Positions 8,560 to 15,512 are shown, numbered from the stretch's first letter. The stretch is 64,000 nucleotides of DNA from Candidatus Poribacteria bacterium (GCA_965242965.1 OZ251518.1:4896001-4960000); one strand, 5' to 3'. Program-made: numbers and translations. Notes: generated from the sequence alone by a model not told the origin.

Positions 8560-9453
8560 TTATCCGCCTGCGAAGGCAACGGCAAATTTGATGATTGCCG
8601 CGGCAATGTTGATACCGGTGACACTCTCTAGTTCCTCAAATCCCGGCGATGGGTTTACCTCTAGGATAACAGGACCGGCTGCCGTTTGGAGCATGTCTAC
8701 ACCGGCGATATCCAATTCTAGTGCGGCCGTTGCTTCAATAGCAAGAGATTTTTCGTTATCGGAGAGGGTGACCGCTTCGCCGGATGCGCCTCGGTGGATA
8801 TTCGCGCGGAATTCGCCGCCCGGGGCGCGTCTCTGCATCCCCGTGATAACTTCACCGCCGACAACGAGGATACGGATATCAATCCCCGTGGTGTTCTCAC
8901 CGATAAACGGTTGAATAACGTAATCTTGATGGAGTTCACACAATGCATCCACTGCCGAGGTGAGGGAAGTCGGCGTATCCAGCAACATTACGCCTCTGCC
9001 GTGTGTGCCGTAAAACGGCTTCAAAATAAACGGGTAGTCTCCGAGTTCAGCGGCAGCCGCTTCCAAAAACGCTGCTGAACCGACGGTGAGACTCGGCGGC
9101 ACAGGCAATCCGTGTTGCGCGAGGATGCGTAAGGAACGGAATTTGTGGCGCGCGTTATCTATCGCCTGCGCGCGATTCATCACCGGGATGCCTAGCCATT
9201 CAAAGTGTGCAATGACTTCTTGTCCGTATGCCGCCGTTGCGCCGCTAATGCGTGGAATGACGACATCAATATCTTCTACCGACGCGCCTTCATAAGTTAC
9301 ACGATTACCCGAGTCGCCCTCAATGGAGAGAATGGAGAGATAAAATCCAAACGCATCCAGGATGTGGGCGGTGTGTCCAGCATTTTCGGCGGCTTCGCGG
9401 AGGCTTCGAGTGGAATGGTTTTGGGCACCCCGGGAGATAATAGCGATTTTCAT
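8560..9453 (-). CDS. rimK: RimK-family ATP-grasp alpha-L-glutamate ligase
   Basis: DVVIPRI, KPFYGTHGRGV, DIRILVVGG, FRANIHRG, LEVNPSPG; GAGG RBS before ATG 9453. Confidence 0.8.
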   Translation of the reverse strand: MKIAIISRGAQNHSTRSLREAAENAGHTAHILDAFGFYLSILSIEGDSGNRVTYEGASVEDIDVVIPRISGATAAYGQEVIAHFEWLGIPVMNRAQAIDNARHKFRSLRILAQHGLPVPPSLTVGSAAFLEAAAAELGDYPFILKPFYGTHGRGVMLLDTPTSLTSAVDALCELHQDYVIQPFIGENTTGIDIRILVVGGEVITGMQRRAPGGEFRANIHRGASGEAVTLSDNEKSLAIEATAALELDIAGVDMLQTAAGPVILEVNPSPGFEELESVTGINIAAAIIKFAVAFAGG

Positions 9454-9479
9454 AGTTCCTCGCAGTTCGGGCACTAATG

Positions 9480-10889
9480 CTATCCCAATGCGGTTTTAAG
9501 CTGTTCCACGGCTTCTATCGCGTCCTCAAGTTCTTTTTTCGGGATGTTTGCGATAGTTGCATGGCTAAGTGGGTTTAGGAGATGTCTCCGATACAGTTCA
9601 AGTTCGGTGATGAGTGGTGCATCTAAATGGGAAGTGCCATCCTGCGGATGGGCTATCGGTTCCCAGAAATCCTGACTGGCCAATTTATTCGGTTCGCTGC
9701 GATACCTAACCGGAAGACGCTTTTCATTGCAGAATTTCTTGATTACCTCCTCAAAAGCGGAGCGCAGGTAGATGGCACACGCTTTGTGGTCGTTGGCAGT
9801 AAGAAATTCCCGCGCTTTGTCGAGATACGCTTTACCTTCCACATAGACAGGGATTTCGGCTTCATCGGATTTCGAGAAATAGAATTCGGCGTATTTCCAT
9901 TCTTTCTCGGATGTCCGTTGCTTGACTACCTCATACCACACCTTATCGTAAGTGGTCAGAAAAATTTGGTGATTTGGGAAGTCTGTCGCCAGAATGTCAA
10001 GCACTGGCAGGCGATTCGACATATCCAACCCGATAAGCACGTCATCTAGCGCGAGCACTTTTAAGTCGCTTTCTGGCTGAAGCAGGAGCGCGGCGAAATA
10101 GATGGCGAGGGAAATCGCCGACAACTTCGCTTCATTGAGGAAGCGGTGGTGTGCTGAGATTTGCTTATCCAAGAATTCAACCGTTAAGAGGATGCGCTGG
10201 TTATCCAGCGTCTTGGTTTCGCGGTTGTAAGTGATATCTTCACACGTGAGGTTGAGGGTGACATCGTATCTGAATTTGCGGAGGATTTCGGCTGCGAGTG
10301 TTTGCAGTTCTGCTATCTTACCAGCGAGCCCGGTGTTGAAAGTTTCTATCTGGCCTTCCAACGCTGCAATTTGGCTTGTTGCGTTTCGGCGAGGATACTG
10401 TTCCCGTTGGAGGTTTGTCCATTCCCTACCAAGACTTTCCTTTGTCACGCGGTTGATGGTGTTAGCAAGAAGATTCTCTACCAACAACTTGAAAACATTC
10501 ACATGTTCTGCTTCGCGATGAACATAATGCGTTTCCAAAAGTGCTTTATAGTCAAGGAAGCCTTTGGATTTGGAAGCCTCACTCATCAGCAGATCGTTGG
10601 TTTCCGTAACAGTCCGCGACCATTCGTAGGTGCTCTGCTTTGAGCCCGCATTTGCCCGGAGGTGGAGTTTGATGTATCCATCATCTTCAAGGAAGATGTT
10701 CTGATGTGCTGCAAATCGGTGTTTGCCCTCACTAGATTCTAGGAACAACTTCAATGCCAGATACAGTGACGATTTGCCGCTGCCATTTTCGCCGTAAACG
10801 AGCAAGTTTTTTCCAGCCTTATGTAGGTTGATGTGATAGTCCCCATAAAAGGCTCTGAAGTTCCTGAGTTCAATGCCGGTAATTCTCAT
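9480..10889 (-). CDS. ABC/SMC-type ATPase with probable C-terminal HEPN domain (RloC/AAA_13-like)
   Basis: Walker A GENGSGKS, short coiled coil, Walker B LALDD, C-terminal RRHLLNPLSH; start overlaps the upstream stop (ATGA). Confidence 0.8.
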   Translation of the reverse strand: MRITGIELRNFRAFYGDYHINLHKAGKNLLVYGENGSGKSSLYLALKLFLESSEGKHRFAAHQNIFLEDDGYIKLHLRANAGSKQSTYEWSRTVTETNDLLMSEASKSKGFLDYKALLETHYVHREAEHVNVFKLLVENLLANTINRVTKESLGREWTNLQREQYPRRNATSQIAALEGQIETFNTGLAGKIAELQTLAAEILRKFRYDVTLNLTCEDITYNRETKTLDNQRILLTVEFLDKQISAHHRFLNEAKLSAISLAIYFAALLLQPESDLKVLALDDVLIGLDMSNRLPVLDILATDFPNHQIFLTTYDKVWYEVVKQRTSEKEWKYAEFYFSKSDEAEIPVYVEGKAYLDKAREFLTANDHKACAIYLRSAFEEVIKKFCNEKRLPVRYRSEPNKLASQDFWEPIAHPQDGTSHLDAPLITELELYRRHLLNPLSHATIANIPKKELEDAIEAVEQLKTALG

Positions 10890-12826
10890 AGTTTTTTGCC
10901 CTCAATGATACGGATGGGCTCTAAACTATCCAAGAAGAAACTGTTCCTCCGGATTGGATGATGCCTTTCTGAAAGATGCTCAAAGATTTCGCGGAAAGCA
11001 GGCACCTTATCATCGCCCGGAATCTCTTCAAGATCTGGAAGACGCTCTTCAAACAGAGGTTGAAAGAAGTGCTTATCTCCCTGATGGAGTTCATCGGGCA
11101 GATAGAGCTCATAAACCAGCCCATCAAGGATATGTCCGAAATACGCTACCATCACGTAGTCGCGGGCGTTCGCCAGATCAGAACCGTCTGTCGTCGGCTG
11201 CTTCTTAAGATAGAGGACGTATTCAACCAACTTGTGGAGGAGTGCCTTTTGCGCGGCATCCATATCAGGAATCGGAATTTGCGCGATGGACCGGGGAGAA
11301 AATGTTAAAAATGAGTCCTTCCGTGTCTGCGGTGTCGTGCGCGCGTGAAACCAGGAAACAGCTTTCGTGTTCAGCACACCGAAGAGCCACAGTTCCTGTG
11401 TTGGAAGAACATACGCGGGGCTGCCCACATAGTAGCCTTCGTCGTCAAAATCAAACGCCGTTTCGGTCGAGAAATTCGGATAGAGACCTTTCGGTTGTTC
11501 AAACCGCGATGCATCCTTGGGCGCGGTTTGGAGTTCATACCATTCCTGCCGCCCGGCCCTTTTGCACAATGCCTCTCTATATTTCGCCAAGTGCTTCTTG
11601 ATTGCCGGATACGCGTTAATCTCCGTTCCGCGTGAGGTAAAGATGAGCCACTTGTCCTCCGGTTTCACTCGCCAGCGTTTGAGTTCCTGCACGCCCAGAA
11701 ACGGCTTCAGAATCTCAACCGACGCGGGATGTGCTGCAATCAGCGCATCCCGGGTTGCCGCGTCTACGACAAAGGCTTCGTTCAATCCTGTCGTAATGCC
11801 ACGAGAGGAACGACCCTGGAGATATTCACCTAAAGGGTTGCCTGCACTACGGAACTTCTCTAGTAGTTGCCATACCACAGGAGTGTTCCGCGATTCGCCA
11901 TCGGCAGTCAAAACTTTCTGCGTCGTTGTGAAATTGTTTACCGGGTATTGCATCAACATTGCAACAATGTCTTTCGGCACCTTGAAACCGTTCCTCTTCT
12001 CAAACATTGAAACGCTTCTATAGGTGTTATGAAAAGCGGCGGTAATATCCATGCCCAAACTCTTGGCGGCTGTCAAGTCTGTTCTGGCTTTATCCCACTC
12101 CTGCAGGCTTAACCAGGCCTCACCACGATTGTAAAAGGCAGGGGCAAACTCCGGTTTTAGTTTTATCGCCATCGTCCAGTCTTCAATAGCGCGCGGCGAA
12201 ACTTCTGTCTTCACGTGGGCCATACCACGATTGTAATAGGCCTCGGCATACCACGGTTTGAGATGAATTGCATCAGAGTAGGCTTCAACCGCCTCGTTCA
12301 ATTGCCCGAATGTCATCAGAACATTGCCGCGTTGTAACGCTGATTCGGCGTGTAATTCTTTTTCGGACATCTCGGATAGCGGATTCGCCCGAGATTGCAT
12401 TCCGGTAACCGTGCTTAGGAGGTGTTCCACTACATTTTGCCACCCACGACTTTCAGGTTTCCACGCGCGAACCGGTTTGCCTTTGTCAGGGAGAACAGGG
12501 AAGTCACTGAGGGGATGATGGATCCAGTCACATTCTTCAAGGATAATAGGAATGACGCGCAGATTCGCTTTTAATGCCGCCGCCAACTCCTTGTTGCAAC
12601 TTTCCGAAGCAAGACTAGCAGGGGAGGTGAGGTAGAGCAAAATGTCCGACCCAGCGAGATTACCGAAAACAACGTCGCGCCAGGTGTTACCCGGGACGGT
12701 TTCAGTATCGTGCCAGACGCTTATCAAGCCCTCACGCTGTAGGCTAGCGAGGTGCGTTATCAATTCGTCCTTCGCCTCTGTATCCTTATGCGAGTAGGTA
12801 ATGAAGACATTTACCGGTTTGCTCAC
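10886..12826 (-). CDS. TIR domain + TPR repeats + TaqI-C/Eco57I-like DNA target-recognition domain
   Basis: VFITYSHKD...SESCNKEL (TIR); AYYNRG and AFYNRG TPRs; RGITTGLNEAF, WYELQ and GVLNT plus an IIEGK tail typical of type IIG R-M C-termini. No MTase motifs seen. Confidence 0.85.
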   Translation of the reverse strand: MSKPVNVFITYSHKDTEAKDELITHLASLQREGLISVWHDTETVPGNTWRDVVFGNLAGSDILLYLTSPASLASESCNKELAAALKANLRVIPIILEECDWIHHPLSDFPVLPDKGKPVRAWKPESRGWQNVVEHLLSTVTGMQSRANPLSEMSEKELHAESALQRGNVLMTFGQLNEAVEAYSDAIHLKPWYAEAYYNRGMAHVKTEVSPRAIEDWTMAIKLKPEFAPAFYNRGEAWLSLQEWDKARTDLTAAKSLGMDITAAFHNTYRSVSMFEKRNGFKVPKDIVAMLMQYPVNNFTTTQKVLTADGESRNTPVVWQLLEKFRSAGNPLGEYLQGRSSRGITTGLNEAFVVDAATRDALIAAHPASVEILKPFLGVQELKRWRVKPEDKWLIFTSRGTEINAYPAIKKHLAKYREALCKRAGRQEWYELQTAPKDASRFEQPKGLYPNFSTETAFDFDDEGYYVGSPAYVLPTQELWLFGVLNTKAVSWFHARTTPQTRKDSFLTFSPRSIAQIPIPDMDAAQKALLHKLVEYVLYLKKQPTTDGSDLANARDYVMVAYFGHILDGLVYELYLPDELHQGDKHFFQPLFEERLPDLEEIPGDDKVPAFREIFEHLSERHHPIRRNSFFLDSLEPIRIIEGKKL

Positions 12827-12866
12827 GACTTTTCCTCCGTTTGAGTGCTAATTTCGCTTTGGAGAC

Positions 12867-12895
12867 ATAATAACCTATTCGCGCATAAATGGCAA
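12867..12895 (-). promoter_or_regulatory. sigma70-type promoter of the TIR gene
   Basis: TTGCCA-17 nt-TATTAT on the minus strand. Confidence 0.55.
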
Positions 12896-12926
12896 CAAAA
12901 ATTCACGAAGGCGATAAACATTCGGA

Positions 12927-13724
12927 TTAAACTGCAGCAACCTGATACATCTCCCGCATCACTCTCAGGATGTCGCGTGGTTCACCGAGTTCATCAGTGA
13001 GATAGCGTTTTTCCGCCTGCGTTCTGATGTCTTCGGGAATGCCGTGCAGTGCCTCGGCGATGGGGCCTGCAATAGCGGCAAGCGTATCCGAATCTCCACC
13101 GAGAGAAACGGCATTACGCACCGCATCCTCAAAACTCACGGCTTCCAACGCGCACGTAATTGCTGGCGGGACCGAGCCCTGGCACGTCACGTCAAACTTG
13201 TACCAAGGTCTAATTTCGTCCACCGTCTGGGACAAGTCGTAGTTATATGTGGAGGTGATAGCCTCGCGGATGCTATTGACATTTTCGCCCTGATAGGCGA
13301 GCCAAATCGCATGAGTCGTCGCTCGCGCGCCTTTCATGCCTTCCCGGTGATTGTGCGTGATGGCCGTCACTTTGTCAGAAGCGGCAAGTGCAGCGTCCAG
13401 ATCATCGCGGTTGAGGAACGCCGCCGGTGAAACGCGCATGGCAGCACCGTTTCCGAAACTGTCATAAGGTTCGGGCACATCACGGTAAATCCACTCTCCA
13501 AACATGCCGCCGTAGCCGCCCCGCGGATAACGGCGACACCACTCCTGCATCGTCACCGCGGGCGGGAGGCCGTGGAGCAGAGTATCCGCCACCGCCGCCG
13601 TGCAAATCGAGTCGTCCGTAAAACGGCAGTATGTGCCGAAGAAAGGGAAATCCTTGGTTTTGATTTGATACTTGCGCCTCTCATACATTGAGCCGACAAT
13701 GTCGCCGATAATCGCGCCTATCAT
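12927..13724 (-). CDS. ADP-ribosylglycohydrolase (DraG/ARH family)
   Basis: GAIIGDIVGS, FTDDS, SFGNGAAMR, GGDSDT metal-binding motifs. Confidence 0.92.
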   Translation of the reverse strand: MIGAIIGDIVGSMYERRKYQIKTKDFPFFGTYCRFTDDSICTAAVADTLLHGLPPAVTMQEWCRRYPRGGYGGMFGEWIYRDVPEPYDSFGNGAAMRVSPAAFLNRDDLDAALAASDKVTAITHNHREGMKGARATTHAIWLAYQGENVNSIREAITSTYNYDLSQTVDEIRPWYKFDVTCQGSVPPAITCALEAVSFEDAVRNAVSLGGDSDTLAAIAGPIAEALHGIPEDIRTQAEKRYLTDELGEPRDILRVMREMYQVAAV

Positions 13725-13820
13725 GTTTCCTCCTTAAAGACAAAAAACGTTTGGGATTTCGTAAACGCGGTTTGCATCCGCGCATCCGCGTCTACGGGGT
13801 TCCTCCTGCACAAGTCAGGA

Positions 13821-15512
13821 TTAGCCCTCGGGGTAAACCCAGATCTTGAGTGCCTTCTCGGCGAGCTCTTTCGCTCGTTCTCGGATGGCCTCTTCATCCC
13901 ATTTCTCTGCTTGGGCAAGGCTACGATTCAAGCGCAACGGGCTATCGCGAAATCCGCCTTCCATGTCTTGCTTCTCGCTGAAGGAGCGATTACTCAACTC
14001 CGGGTTATACCCTGTGAGCGTGAGATTGCCGAGAGTGTGGAGATATGTCTCGTGCGTTTCTTGGAAGTTCTCGCCGAGTTCACGCTGCCACTCTTCAGTC
14101 AGCGTTTGCGGCACGACATGCTCAATTGAGTACTCCGAAACGTCTACCGGTTCTTTACGGCCGTAGTTTTCCAATTTGCGCAGCAAATACGCACACCTTC
14201 GAGAATCATAAACGTTTCTAACCATCAATTCCCGTCGGAACTCGGAGTCGTTTGGATAACGTCTACGTTCATTGGTGGACCGCAAAAAGGCAGCCTTCAC
14301 ACTTTGAAGGTAATTGCTTTTGTCAACTTCCTTCATCAGTGCGGCGAAGATCATATGCAAACTGTTCGTTGGAATACCACAGATAGCCTGTCGGAAGACG
14401 TAACTCTCCACTAGCCGAAGAATTTCGATGTGTTCGGCTGTTCCGATCTGGCCTTGAGCATAATCGTCGTAGACTCCAAGCAAGAACGGGATAGGAGAAC
14501 CCCGCAGGCCAAGCTCGATGATATCCTGATAACGGGCTCGGAGTTCTGGTTCTTCTTCTTTCAATAGCACTATGTTAGCATAATGCTGCGAATGACGAGC
14601 GATTTCCGCAACAATGGGCTCCAACGCATCCGGTGCCTCTTTGCCTGCCACGTGCGCTTTGAAAGTTTCATAAATGCTACGGTTGATGAGGCTAATTTGA
14701 CCTGTTTTTAACCTCAGGTAGTATTGTATGAACCAGTCAAATTCCCTGCTGTCAGATGCTTCCTTGCTGTCAGATGCACCGACAAAACGTTGCTCCATAG
14801 GAAACCAATATTCCTCATAAAGCCGCTTCTGGAACTCAATAACTTGTCCCATCAGCACGTAGTTGCGAATGCGATCGCTTTGCGAGAGGACGAGTCCCGC
14901 CGTATTGAGACTATCAAAAATCAGTTGCGGATTATCGTGGTTCGGGTCCAACGCGATATCAACAACCATTAACTTTTTAATGCCGGTGAATACCACACCC
15001 AGATCTACCCTTCTAAGCTTGGCTTCAAAAAAGGCGTAGTTTTCCACCAAGCGATGTGAAGCATCCGCGGGTTCTTTACGCTCCAACAACTGGAACAGCG
15101 TCTCCTTGTCATGACGCGTCAACAGTTGTTTGTAGCGCAGTTCGCCCTCTTCGTCGGCATTAAAAAGATAATAATTTGAGAGTTGTTTGGGACTTATGCC
15201 AATCTCACTCCCCGTTTCTACAATTGCTTCACCGAGAGCCAGAAGCAAAAGAGATAGGGTAGTTAACCGTTGTTGTCCATCAATAACCAGAAATTCTGGC
15301 ACCGTGGAAATGTTCCCAACCCCCGGTTGCATGTAGACGATTGAACCGAGAAAATGAGACGTAATCCCCGGATTTGCGCCGATGCGCATGATGTCATCCC
15401 AAAGTCGTTGACAATGCTTCTTTTCCCAACTATATCTGCGTTGAAAGATGGGGACAAGAAACTGCTTCGGACCTTGGAGGAATGGCAAAAAACTTGTTTC
15501 GTTTGCTTTCAT
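13821..15512 (-). CDS. GmrSD-family modification-dependent restriction endonuclease (DUF262 + DUF1524 HNH)
   Basis: PIFQRRYSW, IDGQQRLTT, IFDSLN; EHVVPQ...LGNLTL...N..LSN. Confidence 0.9.
   Translation of the reverse strand: MKANETSFLPFLQGPKQFLVPIFQRRYSWEKKHCQRLWDDIMRIGANPGITSHFLGSIVYMQPGVGNISTVPEFLVIDGQQRLTTLSLLLLALGEAIVETGSEIGISPKQLSNYYLFNADEEGELRYKQLLTRHDKETLFQLLERKEPADASHRLVENYAFFEAKLRRVDLGVVFTGIKKLMVVDIALDPNHDNPQLIFDSLNTAGLVLSQSDRIRNYVLMGQVIEFQKRLYEEYWFPMEQRFVGASDSKEASDSREFDWFIQYYLRLKTGQISLINRSIYETFKAHVAGKEAPDALEPIVAEIARHSQHYANIVLLKEEEPELRARYQDIIELGLRGSPIPFLLGVYDDYAQGQIGTAEHIEILRLVESYVFRQAICGIPTNSLHMIFAALMKEVDKSNYLQSVKAAFLRSTNERRRYPNDSEFRRELMVRNVYDSRRCAYLLRKLENYGRKEPVDVSEYSIEHVVPQTLTEEWQRELGENFQETHETYLHTLGNLTLTGYNPELSNRSFSEKQDMEGGFRDSPLRLNRSLAQAEKWDEEAIRERAKELAEKALKIWVYPEG

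Follow-up and report, generated by a model that had tools for sequence, protein, structure and literature searches.

We examined a 64,000-nucleotide stretch of a Candidatus Poribacteria bacterium genome (GCA_965242965.1, OZ251518.1:4896001-4960000; hereafter the window, with positions counted from its first letter) and focused on two overlapping minus-strand genes, A and B, that probably form a restriction-derived, PrrC-like anti-phage suicide switch. The product of gene A joins a TIR domain and tetratricopeptide repeats (TPRs) to the target-recognition domain (TRD) of a type IIG restriction enzyme, and gene B encodes an ABC ATPase with a helical C-terminal end. The genes and the parts of their products are arranged as follows (aa, amino acids; PDB, Protein Data Bank):

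10886..12826, minus strand: gene A, TIR-TPR-TRD-tail protein of 646 aa with a GTG start
12392..12826, minus strand: A residues 1–145, TIR domain with invariant Glu80 (CNKEL), from Pfam, PADLOC and PDB
12059..12364, minus strand: A residues 155–256, about three TPRs, from Pfam TPR_11, TPR_1 and TPR_2 and model helices
11144..11929, minus strand: A residues 300–561, type IIG / TaqI_C-type TRD with no methylase, from Pfam, PADLOC and PDB
10889..11143, minus strand: A residues 562–646, C-terminal tail and candidate docking element, from a profile match in B-coupled proteins only
9480..10889, minus strand: gene B, ABC ATPase with a HEPN-like end, 469 aa
9885..10889, minus strand: B residues 1–335, ABC/SMC-head-type ATPase, from Pfam and Foldseek
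9483..9857, minus strand: B residues 345–469, predicted all-helical HEPN-like (DUF4145-like) domain, from the structural model and a weak Pfam match

The two genes share an ATGA at 10886–10889, comprising the TGA stop of A and the ATG of B, as a preliminary description made from the DNA alone had read it. That description had also proposed the order of domains in A, a TIR, about three TPRs and the C-terminal specificity domain of a type IIG enzyme, and profile searches reproduce each part. Pfam places TIR_2 at residues 7–106 (E 4.3e-15, 56.7 bits against a cut-off of 28), the PADLOC ThsB-type TIR model covers residues 6–143 (1.2e-25), and PDB searches match this region to the TIR domains of TLR2/15 and Cat1. 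The motif SESCNKEL, named beforehand as holding the catalytic-position glutamate, occupies residues 74–81, and its Glu80 is invariant in 20 of 20 homologues and aligns with the conserved WC..EL glutamate of solved TIR domains. Pfam TPR_11, TPR_1 and TPR_2 matches span residues 160–256, and a structural model of A places six paired helices at 155–256 with predicted local distance difference test (pLDDT) scores of 81–94.

The C-terminal part of A is related to the DNA-recognizing end of type IIG enzymes. TaqI_C matches residues 382–519 (E 8.4e-10, 39.4 bits against a cut-off of 26.5), and the type IIG models in PADLOC match A only through their C-terminal 150–260 residues, the best of them (8.4e-20) aligning A residues 323–471 with model positions 846–1003 of 1110. 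A PDB profile search with full-length A was dominated by TPR proteins and was repeated with separate parts; residues 272–646 then matched the TRD of M.BseCI (7qw5, chain residues 362–569, E 2.5e-9) and the C-terminal domain of an adenine methyltransferase (7lni, E 0.007). Consistent with the earlier statement that A carries no methylase or nuclease motif, the Pfam scan of A returned no Eco57I, N6_Mtase or MmeI_Mtase match, a regular-expression search over the protein returned no [NDS]PP[YFWH] or GxG-type motif, and a TIR stands in A where a type IIG enzyme would have its N-terminal nuclease. Lacking both methylase and nuclease domains, A should be able neither to modify nor to restrict DNA. 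Many positions in the TRD and tail are invariant across 20 of 20 homologues.

Protein B begins with an ATPase of the ABC/SMC type. Its Walker A motif (GENGSGKS, residues 33–40) is invariant in 30 homologues, as are LALDD (D282, D283) and a signature-like LNEAKLSA, and Pfam AAA_23, SMC_N and AAA_15 all match above their cut-offs. A Foldseek search with the model of whole B (mean pLDDT 69.9) matched ABC/SMC heads only, with Smc1 and Rad50 heads at the top (E ~1e-10). The C-terminal end of B is likely HEPN-like: the model predicts only helices at residues 355–468 (pLDDT 44–85), the RRHLLNPLSH sequence at 434–443 keeps R434, N439 and H443 in 30 of 30 homologues, D367, R376 and E380 are equally invariant in the same set, and the R-x3-E and N-P-x2-H elements persist even in homologues of 27–47% identity. 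Among 26 family members, DUF4145 (HEPN clan) matches this end in 25, all below threshold with a best E value of 0.0013, and PF05168 HEPN matches in six. A 606-aa B variant (P0216) bears a second DUF4145 (HEPN) domain, this one above threshold, after its HEPN-like domain.

Several further comparisons concern B alone. Many B-family ATPases (590–700 aa) are 120–230 aa longer at the C-terminus, with P0216 the only extension that Pfam recognizes. A search of the ESM Atlas with B residues 345–469 returned AAA_13-bearing clusters at 0.82–0.84, below the level that shuffled proteins also reach, and serves as a lead only. Two partial PDB matches of the B end to SAVED-domain proteins (E 0.036 and 0.29) were weak and judged meaningless. 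MAD3 of MADS, the best PADLOC match of B (5.7e-11), was rejected since the similarity is limited to the generic ATPase; MAD3–MAD4 is described as an OLD-like ATPase–nuclease pair.

We next determined how widely the arrangement occurs. Scanning one genome per species gave 479 confirmed relatives, the best 80 of which yielded the 78 loci analyzed here, and in a protein search 1232 of 8000 scored matches had E≤0.001. Of the 120 matches listed, every one except a single protein combines TIR_2, TPRs and TaqI_C, with a TPR number that varies widely and total lengths of 645–1119 aa; the only name attached to them is 'tetratricopeptide repeat protein [Candidatus Poribacteria bacterium]'. A fusion confined to this assembly, which the preliminary description had foreseen as grounds for abandoning its proposal, is not what these searches found. 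The 78 loci come almost entirely from Poribacteria metagenome-assembled genomes (MAGs), with two Latescibacterota MAGs and one Gemmatimonadetes MAG. A homologue of B (47–76% identity) lies directly downstream in 67 of the 73 TRD-bearing loci and beside none of the five TIR-TPR loci without a TRD, and its open reading frame (ORF) overlaps the upstream gene by 4 or 7 bases in 53 of the 61 called. Conservation of the A–B arrangement across hundreds of loci excludes chance, and the suggestion of a one-off recombination scar fails on the same evidence. Candidate stretches from a viral contig collection included one confirmed relative, giving no sign that phages in that collection commonly carry the family.

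Within the phylum, B is present in 7 of 31 genera and in 88 of 176 genomes, or 71 of 133 when those of high quality are counted alone. Carrier genomes have between one and five matches each, many of them fragmentary, and such a patchy, multi-copy and often decayed distribution is typical of defence genes. The window's own genome holds one full copy of A. It also encodes a TIR-TPR paralogue without a TRD (G000:C1:1999432-2001123, locus L002), a 615-aa frame that is 48% identical over residues 1–238. In a sizeable minority of genomes B, and sometimes A, is truncated or split (L014, L017, L037, L039, L054, L055, L058, L061 and many others); like many defence genes, the module frequently decays and disappears.

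Intact copies are under constraint. We calculated the ratio of nonsynonymous to synonymous substitution rates (dN/dS) by the Nei–Gojobori method, with the caveats that kin are not independent and that dS reaches 1–1.5 in some pairs. Across the linker, TRD and tail, dN/dS is 0.08–0.31 in 33 disjoint pairs, demonstrating purifying selection on the TRD part of A and removing the neutral decay that the preliminary description had named as a refutation. Between the window and the same-genus genome G066, the values for A are 0.17 in the TRD, 0.15 in the tail, 0.37 in the TIR and 0.20 in the TPRs, and for B 0.13 in the ATPase and 0.36 in the C-terminal end. The view that the locus is a functionless remnant of a broken restriction system could draw on the relatives that are fragmented or have lost B, but is scarcely credible given these ratios, the invariance of catalytic-type residues in both proteins, the retained ATGA overlap and the hundreds of intact copies.

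To trace the origin of the pair, we searched with a profile of 30 B sequences and obtained, among 1.84 billion, 3541 cluster representatives at E≤0.001, 865 of them at E≤1e-30; the best 150 matches all aligned full-length. Few matches bear a name; examples are 'AAA family ATPase [Tenacibaculum ascidiaceicola]' and, from Sulfuricurvum, a hypothetical protein. Metagenome contigs scanned with 16 remote B homologues gave 80 loci, 41 of which contain B together with at least 3 kb of upstream sequence. A same-strand ORF abuts B upstream in 39 of these 41, mostly with a 4-base overlap. A profile of A residues 300–646 is matched by 28 of the 39 and not by the other 11, and all seven profile-matching ORFs submitted to Pfam are complete type IIG enzymes with Eco57I-methylase and TaqI_C domains (948–1398 aa). 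The usual metagenome partner of the B family is therefore a complete, translationally coupled Eco57I-type type IIG enzyme encoded upstream, a relationship that is new here. These counts identify the parent of the window module as a pair in which a B-type ATPase is coupled in translation to a type IIG enzyme, and they agree with the earlier proposal that the nuclease-methylase of such a locus was replaced; in the sponge symbionts, by this comparison, that half has given way to TPRs with swappable heads.

Comparison of coupled and uncoupled enzymes further reveals a feature of the extreme C-terminus of A. The TRD+tail profile has 344 positions, with position 262 corresponding to about residue 560 of A. 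For 11 type IIG enzymes that lack direct coupling to B (seven encoded upstream of A in Poribacteria loci and four from the window's own genome, which has at least four type IIG genes), all 12 matched domains end at position 262 or earlier. Of the 30 B-coupled type IIG ORFs with a length of 900 aa or more, 28 are matched as far as position 325 or beyond. The last ~80 residues of A (562–646) are thus specific to B-coupled proteins. This ~80-aa tail, common to A and the coupled type IIG enzymes and absent from uncoupled ones, is likewise new here, and we infer that it is a candidate element for docking B. A predicted complex of A residues 150–646 with B scored 0.00 and, having been run without controls, weighs neither way.

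The TRD+tail and B core also occurs without any head. On the conjugative plasmid pANSO36B of Nostoc cf. commune SO-36 (NZ_AP025734.1, 195530-197976, locus L183), a 338-aa TRD+tail protein (E 4e-100 to the TRD+tail profile) overlaps by ATGA a 477-aa B homologue (E 7e-187), and both resemble the Poribacteria core very closely. The pair is annotated 'TaqI-like C-terminal specificity domain-containing protein' and 'AAA family ATPase', and its presence on this plasmid points to mobility of the core.

Coupling of the parent family to type IIG enzymes raises an alternative in which an A·B complex helps or regulates a type IIG enzyme whose gene lies elsewhere, with the TIR as an assembly scaffold only. 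In 17 of the 73 loci, A is preceded on its own strand by a gene for an Eco57I-type type IIG enzyme, the ATPases of the parent family are physically coupled to such enzymes, and the window's own genome, as noted, encodes several. On the TRD+tail tree, this upstream gene is scattered in one clade (11 changes) and absent from that of the window, and the window and its entire clade have no neighbouring type IIG enzyme. Where such neighbours do occur, they lack the coupling tail, and the heads of A-type proteins are of toxic types (TIR with an intact glutamate, HNH-like, FRG) that swap as effectors do; we regard an accessory role as improbable. Between the type IIG gene and A there is sometimes an extra DUF2971-TPR or FRG-TPR gene without a TRD (as at L075:2651-5464 and L063:4400-6457), and the products of such genes may be additional effectors with TPRs that belong to this island.

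The head is the variable part of A. Across the 73 relatives, the constant core is TPR, TRD and tail with B, and the heads are TIR in 41, FRG in 10, HNH-like in 4 and none in 18, the headless calls resting on simple ORF calling that may include frameshifted genes. The preliminary description had treated TIR-TPR as the defining part of the module; the combination is present in the window, but the variety of heads gives that role to the core. A profile of the window TIR matches 40 of 75 A-type ORFs, and heads of other kinds are FRG (Pfam E 1e-13 to 1e-17), HNH_5-like (E 3e-5, below cut-off), divergent TIR_2 or absent. Heads change at least 17 times on the TRD+tail tree, which has 73 rows and was obtained by a quick search with Shimodaira–Hasegawa-like approximate likelihood ratio test (SH-aLRT) support only. 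The window and G066 carry TIR heads in a clade whose 21 other members have FRG, HNH-like or no head, and between the window and the G066 locus (L101) dS in gene A is 0.26–0.36 in the TIR and TPR regions against 1.04 in the TRD, an approximately four-fold difference. Uneven dS along A and a TIR head on an otherwise FRG, HNH-like or headless TRD clade point to acquisition of the window's head by recombination. Swappable heads in place of the nuclease-methylase half in sponge symbionts are a third observation new here.

Association with sponges suggests a different role for the family, as a host-interaction factor in which the TIR-TPR protein interferes with TIR-based signalling of the sponge. 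TIR and TPR are known as 'eukaryote-like' domains. Sponge symbionts are rich in eukaryote-like repeat proteins, the family is nearly confined to sponge-associated Poribacteria, Latescibacterota and Gemmatimonadota MAGs, and the sequencing runs that contain DNA of this stretch include ones labelled sponge metagenome, with no RNA run listed among them. This role is nonetheless highly improbable: the N-terminus of A has no hydrophobic signal-like stretch, close relatives replace the TIR with an HNH-like head, an FRG head or no head, the core also resides on a Nostoc plasmid, and A combines its TIR-TPR part with a TRD from a restriction enzyme and has translational coupling to an ABC ATPase that descends from restriction–modification loci.

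Together, these observations lead us to propose, with a probability of roughly 55%, that the two proteins A and B together make up an abortive-infection module, a suicide defence descended from a two-gene restriction system. An ancestral type IIG enzyme would have exchanged its nuclease-methylase half for TPRs and a toxic head while retaining the TRD, the tail and B. The tail of A would dock B and the A·B complex would remain silent until a phage-derived trigger acted on the retained TRD/TPR surface of A. We favor as trigger a phage protein aimed at restriction enzymes, with the TRD serving as bait (compare the Stp peptide and PrrC), since it is hard to see how a TRD lacking a methylase would leave host DNA alone; the alternative trigger is foreign DNA. 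Triggering would engage the ATPase heads of B, which would pair the HEPN-like domains for RNA cleavage and cluster the TIR domains for NAD+ breakdown through Glu80, and the combined loss of NAD+ and cutting of RNA would stop the infected cell.

If no phage protein is needed, the orphan TRD may itself read DNA sequence or structure while the Rad50/SMC-like ATPase monitors DNA, as in RloC, so that binding of invading DNA turns on the TIR and HEPN domains. Homology of the A TRD to the DNA-contacting TRDs of M.BseCI and type IIG enzymes, purifying selection on that domain, the match of the B fold to the DNA-clamping heads of Smc and Rad50, and the DNA-dependent ATPase reported for RloC (PMC3458546) all fit direct sensing. 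We consider it a serious rival, though rather unlikely. Without a methylase, there would be no evident way of sparing a short site in the host's own 5.7-Mb genome, and the A TRD is constant (45–60% identity within the family), whereas the TRDs of neighbouring restriction enzymes vary widely.

A broader and more tentative reading, which we hold as possible although the odds are against it, is that TRD, tail and ABC ATPase form a portable platform for sensing, which evolution transferred from restriction into suicide immunity and which drives interchangeable killers (TIR, HNH, FRG, HEPN). In such a platform, the DNA-reading end of the type IIG enzyme would either sense DNA or be a built-in bait for the anti-restriction factors of phages.

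Several results weigh against the proposed abortive-infection module. Protein B has no Walker B glutamate and carries 'TTYD' at the position expected for the H-loop histidine (30 homologues), and the absence of these two residues means that B may hydrolyze ATP poorly. For the C-terminal end of B, described beforehand as a HEPN-like RRHLLNPLSH, the ATPase attachment is borne out and R434, N439 and H443 are invariant, but the window protein scores 15 bits to DUF4145 against a cut-off of 23.1, the R434-x4-N439-x3-H443 motif has 8 residues between R and H and differs from the canonical Rx4-6H, and a PDB profile search with this end found nothing meaningful. The model of A (mean pLDDT 62) is poor in the TRD part, with residues 338–473 at pLDDT 30–40. 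Several copies in other genomes are broken, the window locus has no adjacent type IIG enzyme, and the other recurrent flanking genes in other genomes are mostly housekeeping genes rather than defence islands. Finally, where a neighbouring type IIG enzyme exists, the A TRD is 25–30% identical to the TRD of that neighbour, against 35–41% to one other type; its being no closer to the neighbour than to others argues against a shared DNA specificity, an idea we rejected.

The remaining features of the locus lie upstream of gene A:

12834..12838, minus strand: Shine–Dalgarno GGAGG, 7 nt 5′ of the gene A GTG, read from the sequence
12867..12895, minus strand: promoter-like TTGCCA-17-TATTAT 5′ of gene A, with 10/12 consensus matches as its only basis
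12927..13724, minus strand: ADP-ribosylglycohydrolase gene, 100 nt 5′ of gene A (Pfam 2.8e-35)
13821..15512, minus strand: GmrSD-type type IV restriction enzyme gene (Pfam GmrSD_N and GmrSD_C; PADLOC Orf5 1.1e-170)

The GTG start of gene A fits the N-termini of its homologues (MSKP...). The claim that A has its own promoter-like sequence holds insofar as TTGCCA-17-TATTAT is the top promoter-like match in 9300–13900 and sits in the 100-nt gap 5′ of the gene; the five promoter-like matches in the region as a whole, however, do not exceed the chance level (shuffles 3.7 ± 2.0). G+C content is 0.475–0.517 across 9–13 kb against ~0.55 nearby. Downstream of A–B lie genes for RimK and a glycosyltransferase (Pfam), and G066 keeps the complete gene order of the window locus, with an ADP-ribosylglycohydrolase that is 90% identical compared with 79% for A and 74% for B.

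The ADP-ribosylglycohydrolase occurs in 0 of the 78 other loci and is confined to the version of the locus found in the window's genus, a result on which we rejected it and GmrSD as general system components. None of the 27 RimK loci examined in the family's other genera has B next to RimK, and the glycohydrolase-A-B block consequently looks like a genus-specific insertion; the ADP-ribosylglycohydrolase appears to have entered between GmrSD and RimK together with A–B in this genus only. GmrSD directly abuts RimK in 5 of the 27, which makes the GmrSD/RimK site a small variable defence spot. The ADP-ribosylglycohydrolase could trim TIR-derived ADP-ribose products, or be unrelated to A–B.

If the module works as proposed, the locus provides a stepwise case of a restriction enzyme rebuilt into an abortive-infection receptor, with the recognition domain and ATPase partner kept, and adds to the few known cases, PrrC and PARIS, of bacteria guarding their restriction systems. 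The analysis also brings to light a large partnership, so far without a name, in which type IIG enzymes are joined through the ~80-aa tail to a dedicated ABC ATPase that ends in a HEPN-like domain and whose members carry only the annotation names 'AAA family ATPase', 'TaqI-like C-terminal specificity domain-containing protein' and 'tetratricopeptide repeat protein'. Should the portable-platform reading hold, the module would parallel, in bacteria, the plant TIR receptors that contain integrated decoys, and the much larger parent family of type IIG enzyme and ATPase (at least 865 ATPase clusters at E≤1e-30) would be an unrecognized two-layer restriction-plus-abortive-infection system.

The preliminary description did not recognize the architecture of A–B from described systems, and our comparison upholds this: PADLOC-DB 2.0 holds no system model for the pair, and we found no literature description of a TIR-TPR-TRD protein with an ABC-HEPN ATPase, although supplementary files such as those of PMC3710099 may list the family. 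Nor did we find a description of a type IIG enzyme paired with a B-type ATPase, in a search that did not extend to the 2020 Nucleic Acids Research classification of ABC ATPases.

Individual parts can nevertheless be placed beside known defences. Thoeris ThsB, SPARTA, CBASS TIR effectors and Cat1 share with A a TIR_2-type domain with a glutamate in the catalytic position, and differ in that the TIR of A is fused to TPRs and a TRD. The window neighbours include no adjacent ThsA (SIR2 or Macro-SLOG), Argonaute or cyclase, and without a ThsA the pair is not Thoeris. Type IIG enzymes of the Eco57I/MmeI kind have a TRD homologous to A residues ~300–561, and their B-coupled members share the tail, but A has neither their methylase nor their nuclease domain. 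PARIS combines the ABC ATPase AriA with the TOPRIM protein AriB and senses the anti-restriction protein Ocr. It resembles A–B in pairing an AAA_15/OLD-related ABC ATPase with a toxic effector and, under the favored model, in a presumed sensing of anti-restriction factors; the AriA match, however, covers only B residues 1–80 (4.9e-9), and no TOPRIM gene lies near A–B in the window. DndH-type proteins, which combine a TRD, an inactive methylase and a restriction endonuclease and work with a HerA/FtsK ATPase, offer a precedent for recruitment of a restriction-type TRD into a non-methylating defence protein, although as described (PMC10853773) they have no TIR, TPR or ABC-HEPN part.

A further resemblance is to the anticodon nucleases PrrC, which accompanies the type Ic enzyme EcoprrI, and RloC: both carry an ABC ATPase at the N-terminus, as B does, and a helical HEPN-type domain at the C-terminus, where B has its putative HEPN-like end. 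PrrC has an Arg-Glu-His triad, which the R-x3-E (R376, E380) and downstream histidine (H443) of B may resemble. The PrrC gene is linked to a restriction–modification enzyme, and in the B family this linkage takes the form of translational coupling in 28 of 41 metagenome loci, while in the window the partner of B is an orphan TRD only. B differs from PrrC and RloC in that its partner is a type IIG enzyme or an orphan TRD and not a type I enzyme, its end is more DUF4145-like, and A brings a second effector, the TIR; the PrrC/RloC model AAA_13 matches B only in the P-loop region and below threshold (E 0.0042, 16.3 bits against a cut-off of 36). ABC-ATPase-HEPN proteins encoded in restriction–modification operons are regarded as latent suicide RNases that back up restriction, as PrrC does with EcoprrI (PMC3710099). 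Judged by domain composition and gene linkage, A–B is a predicted combination of this restriction–modification-linked ABC-HEPN abortive infection with a TIR effector.

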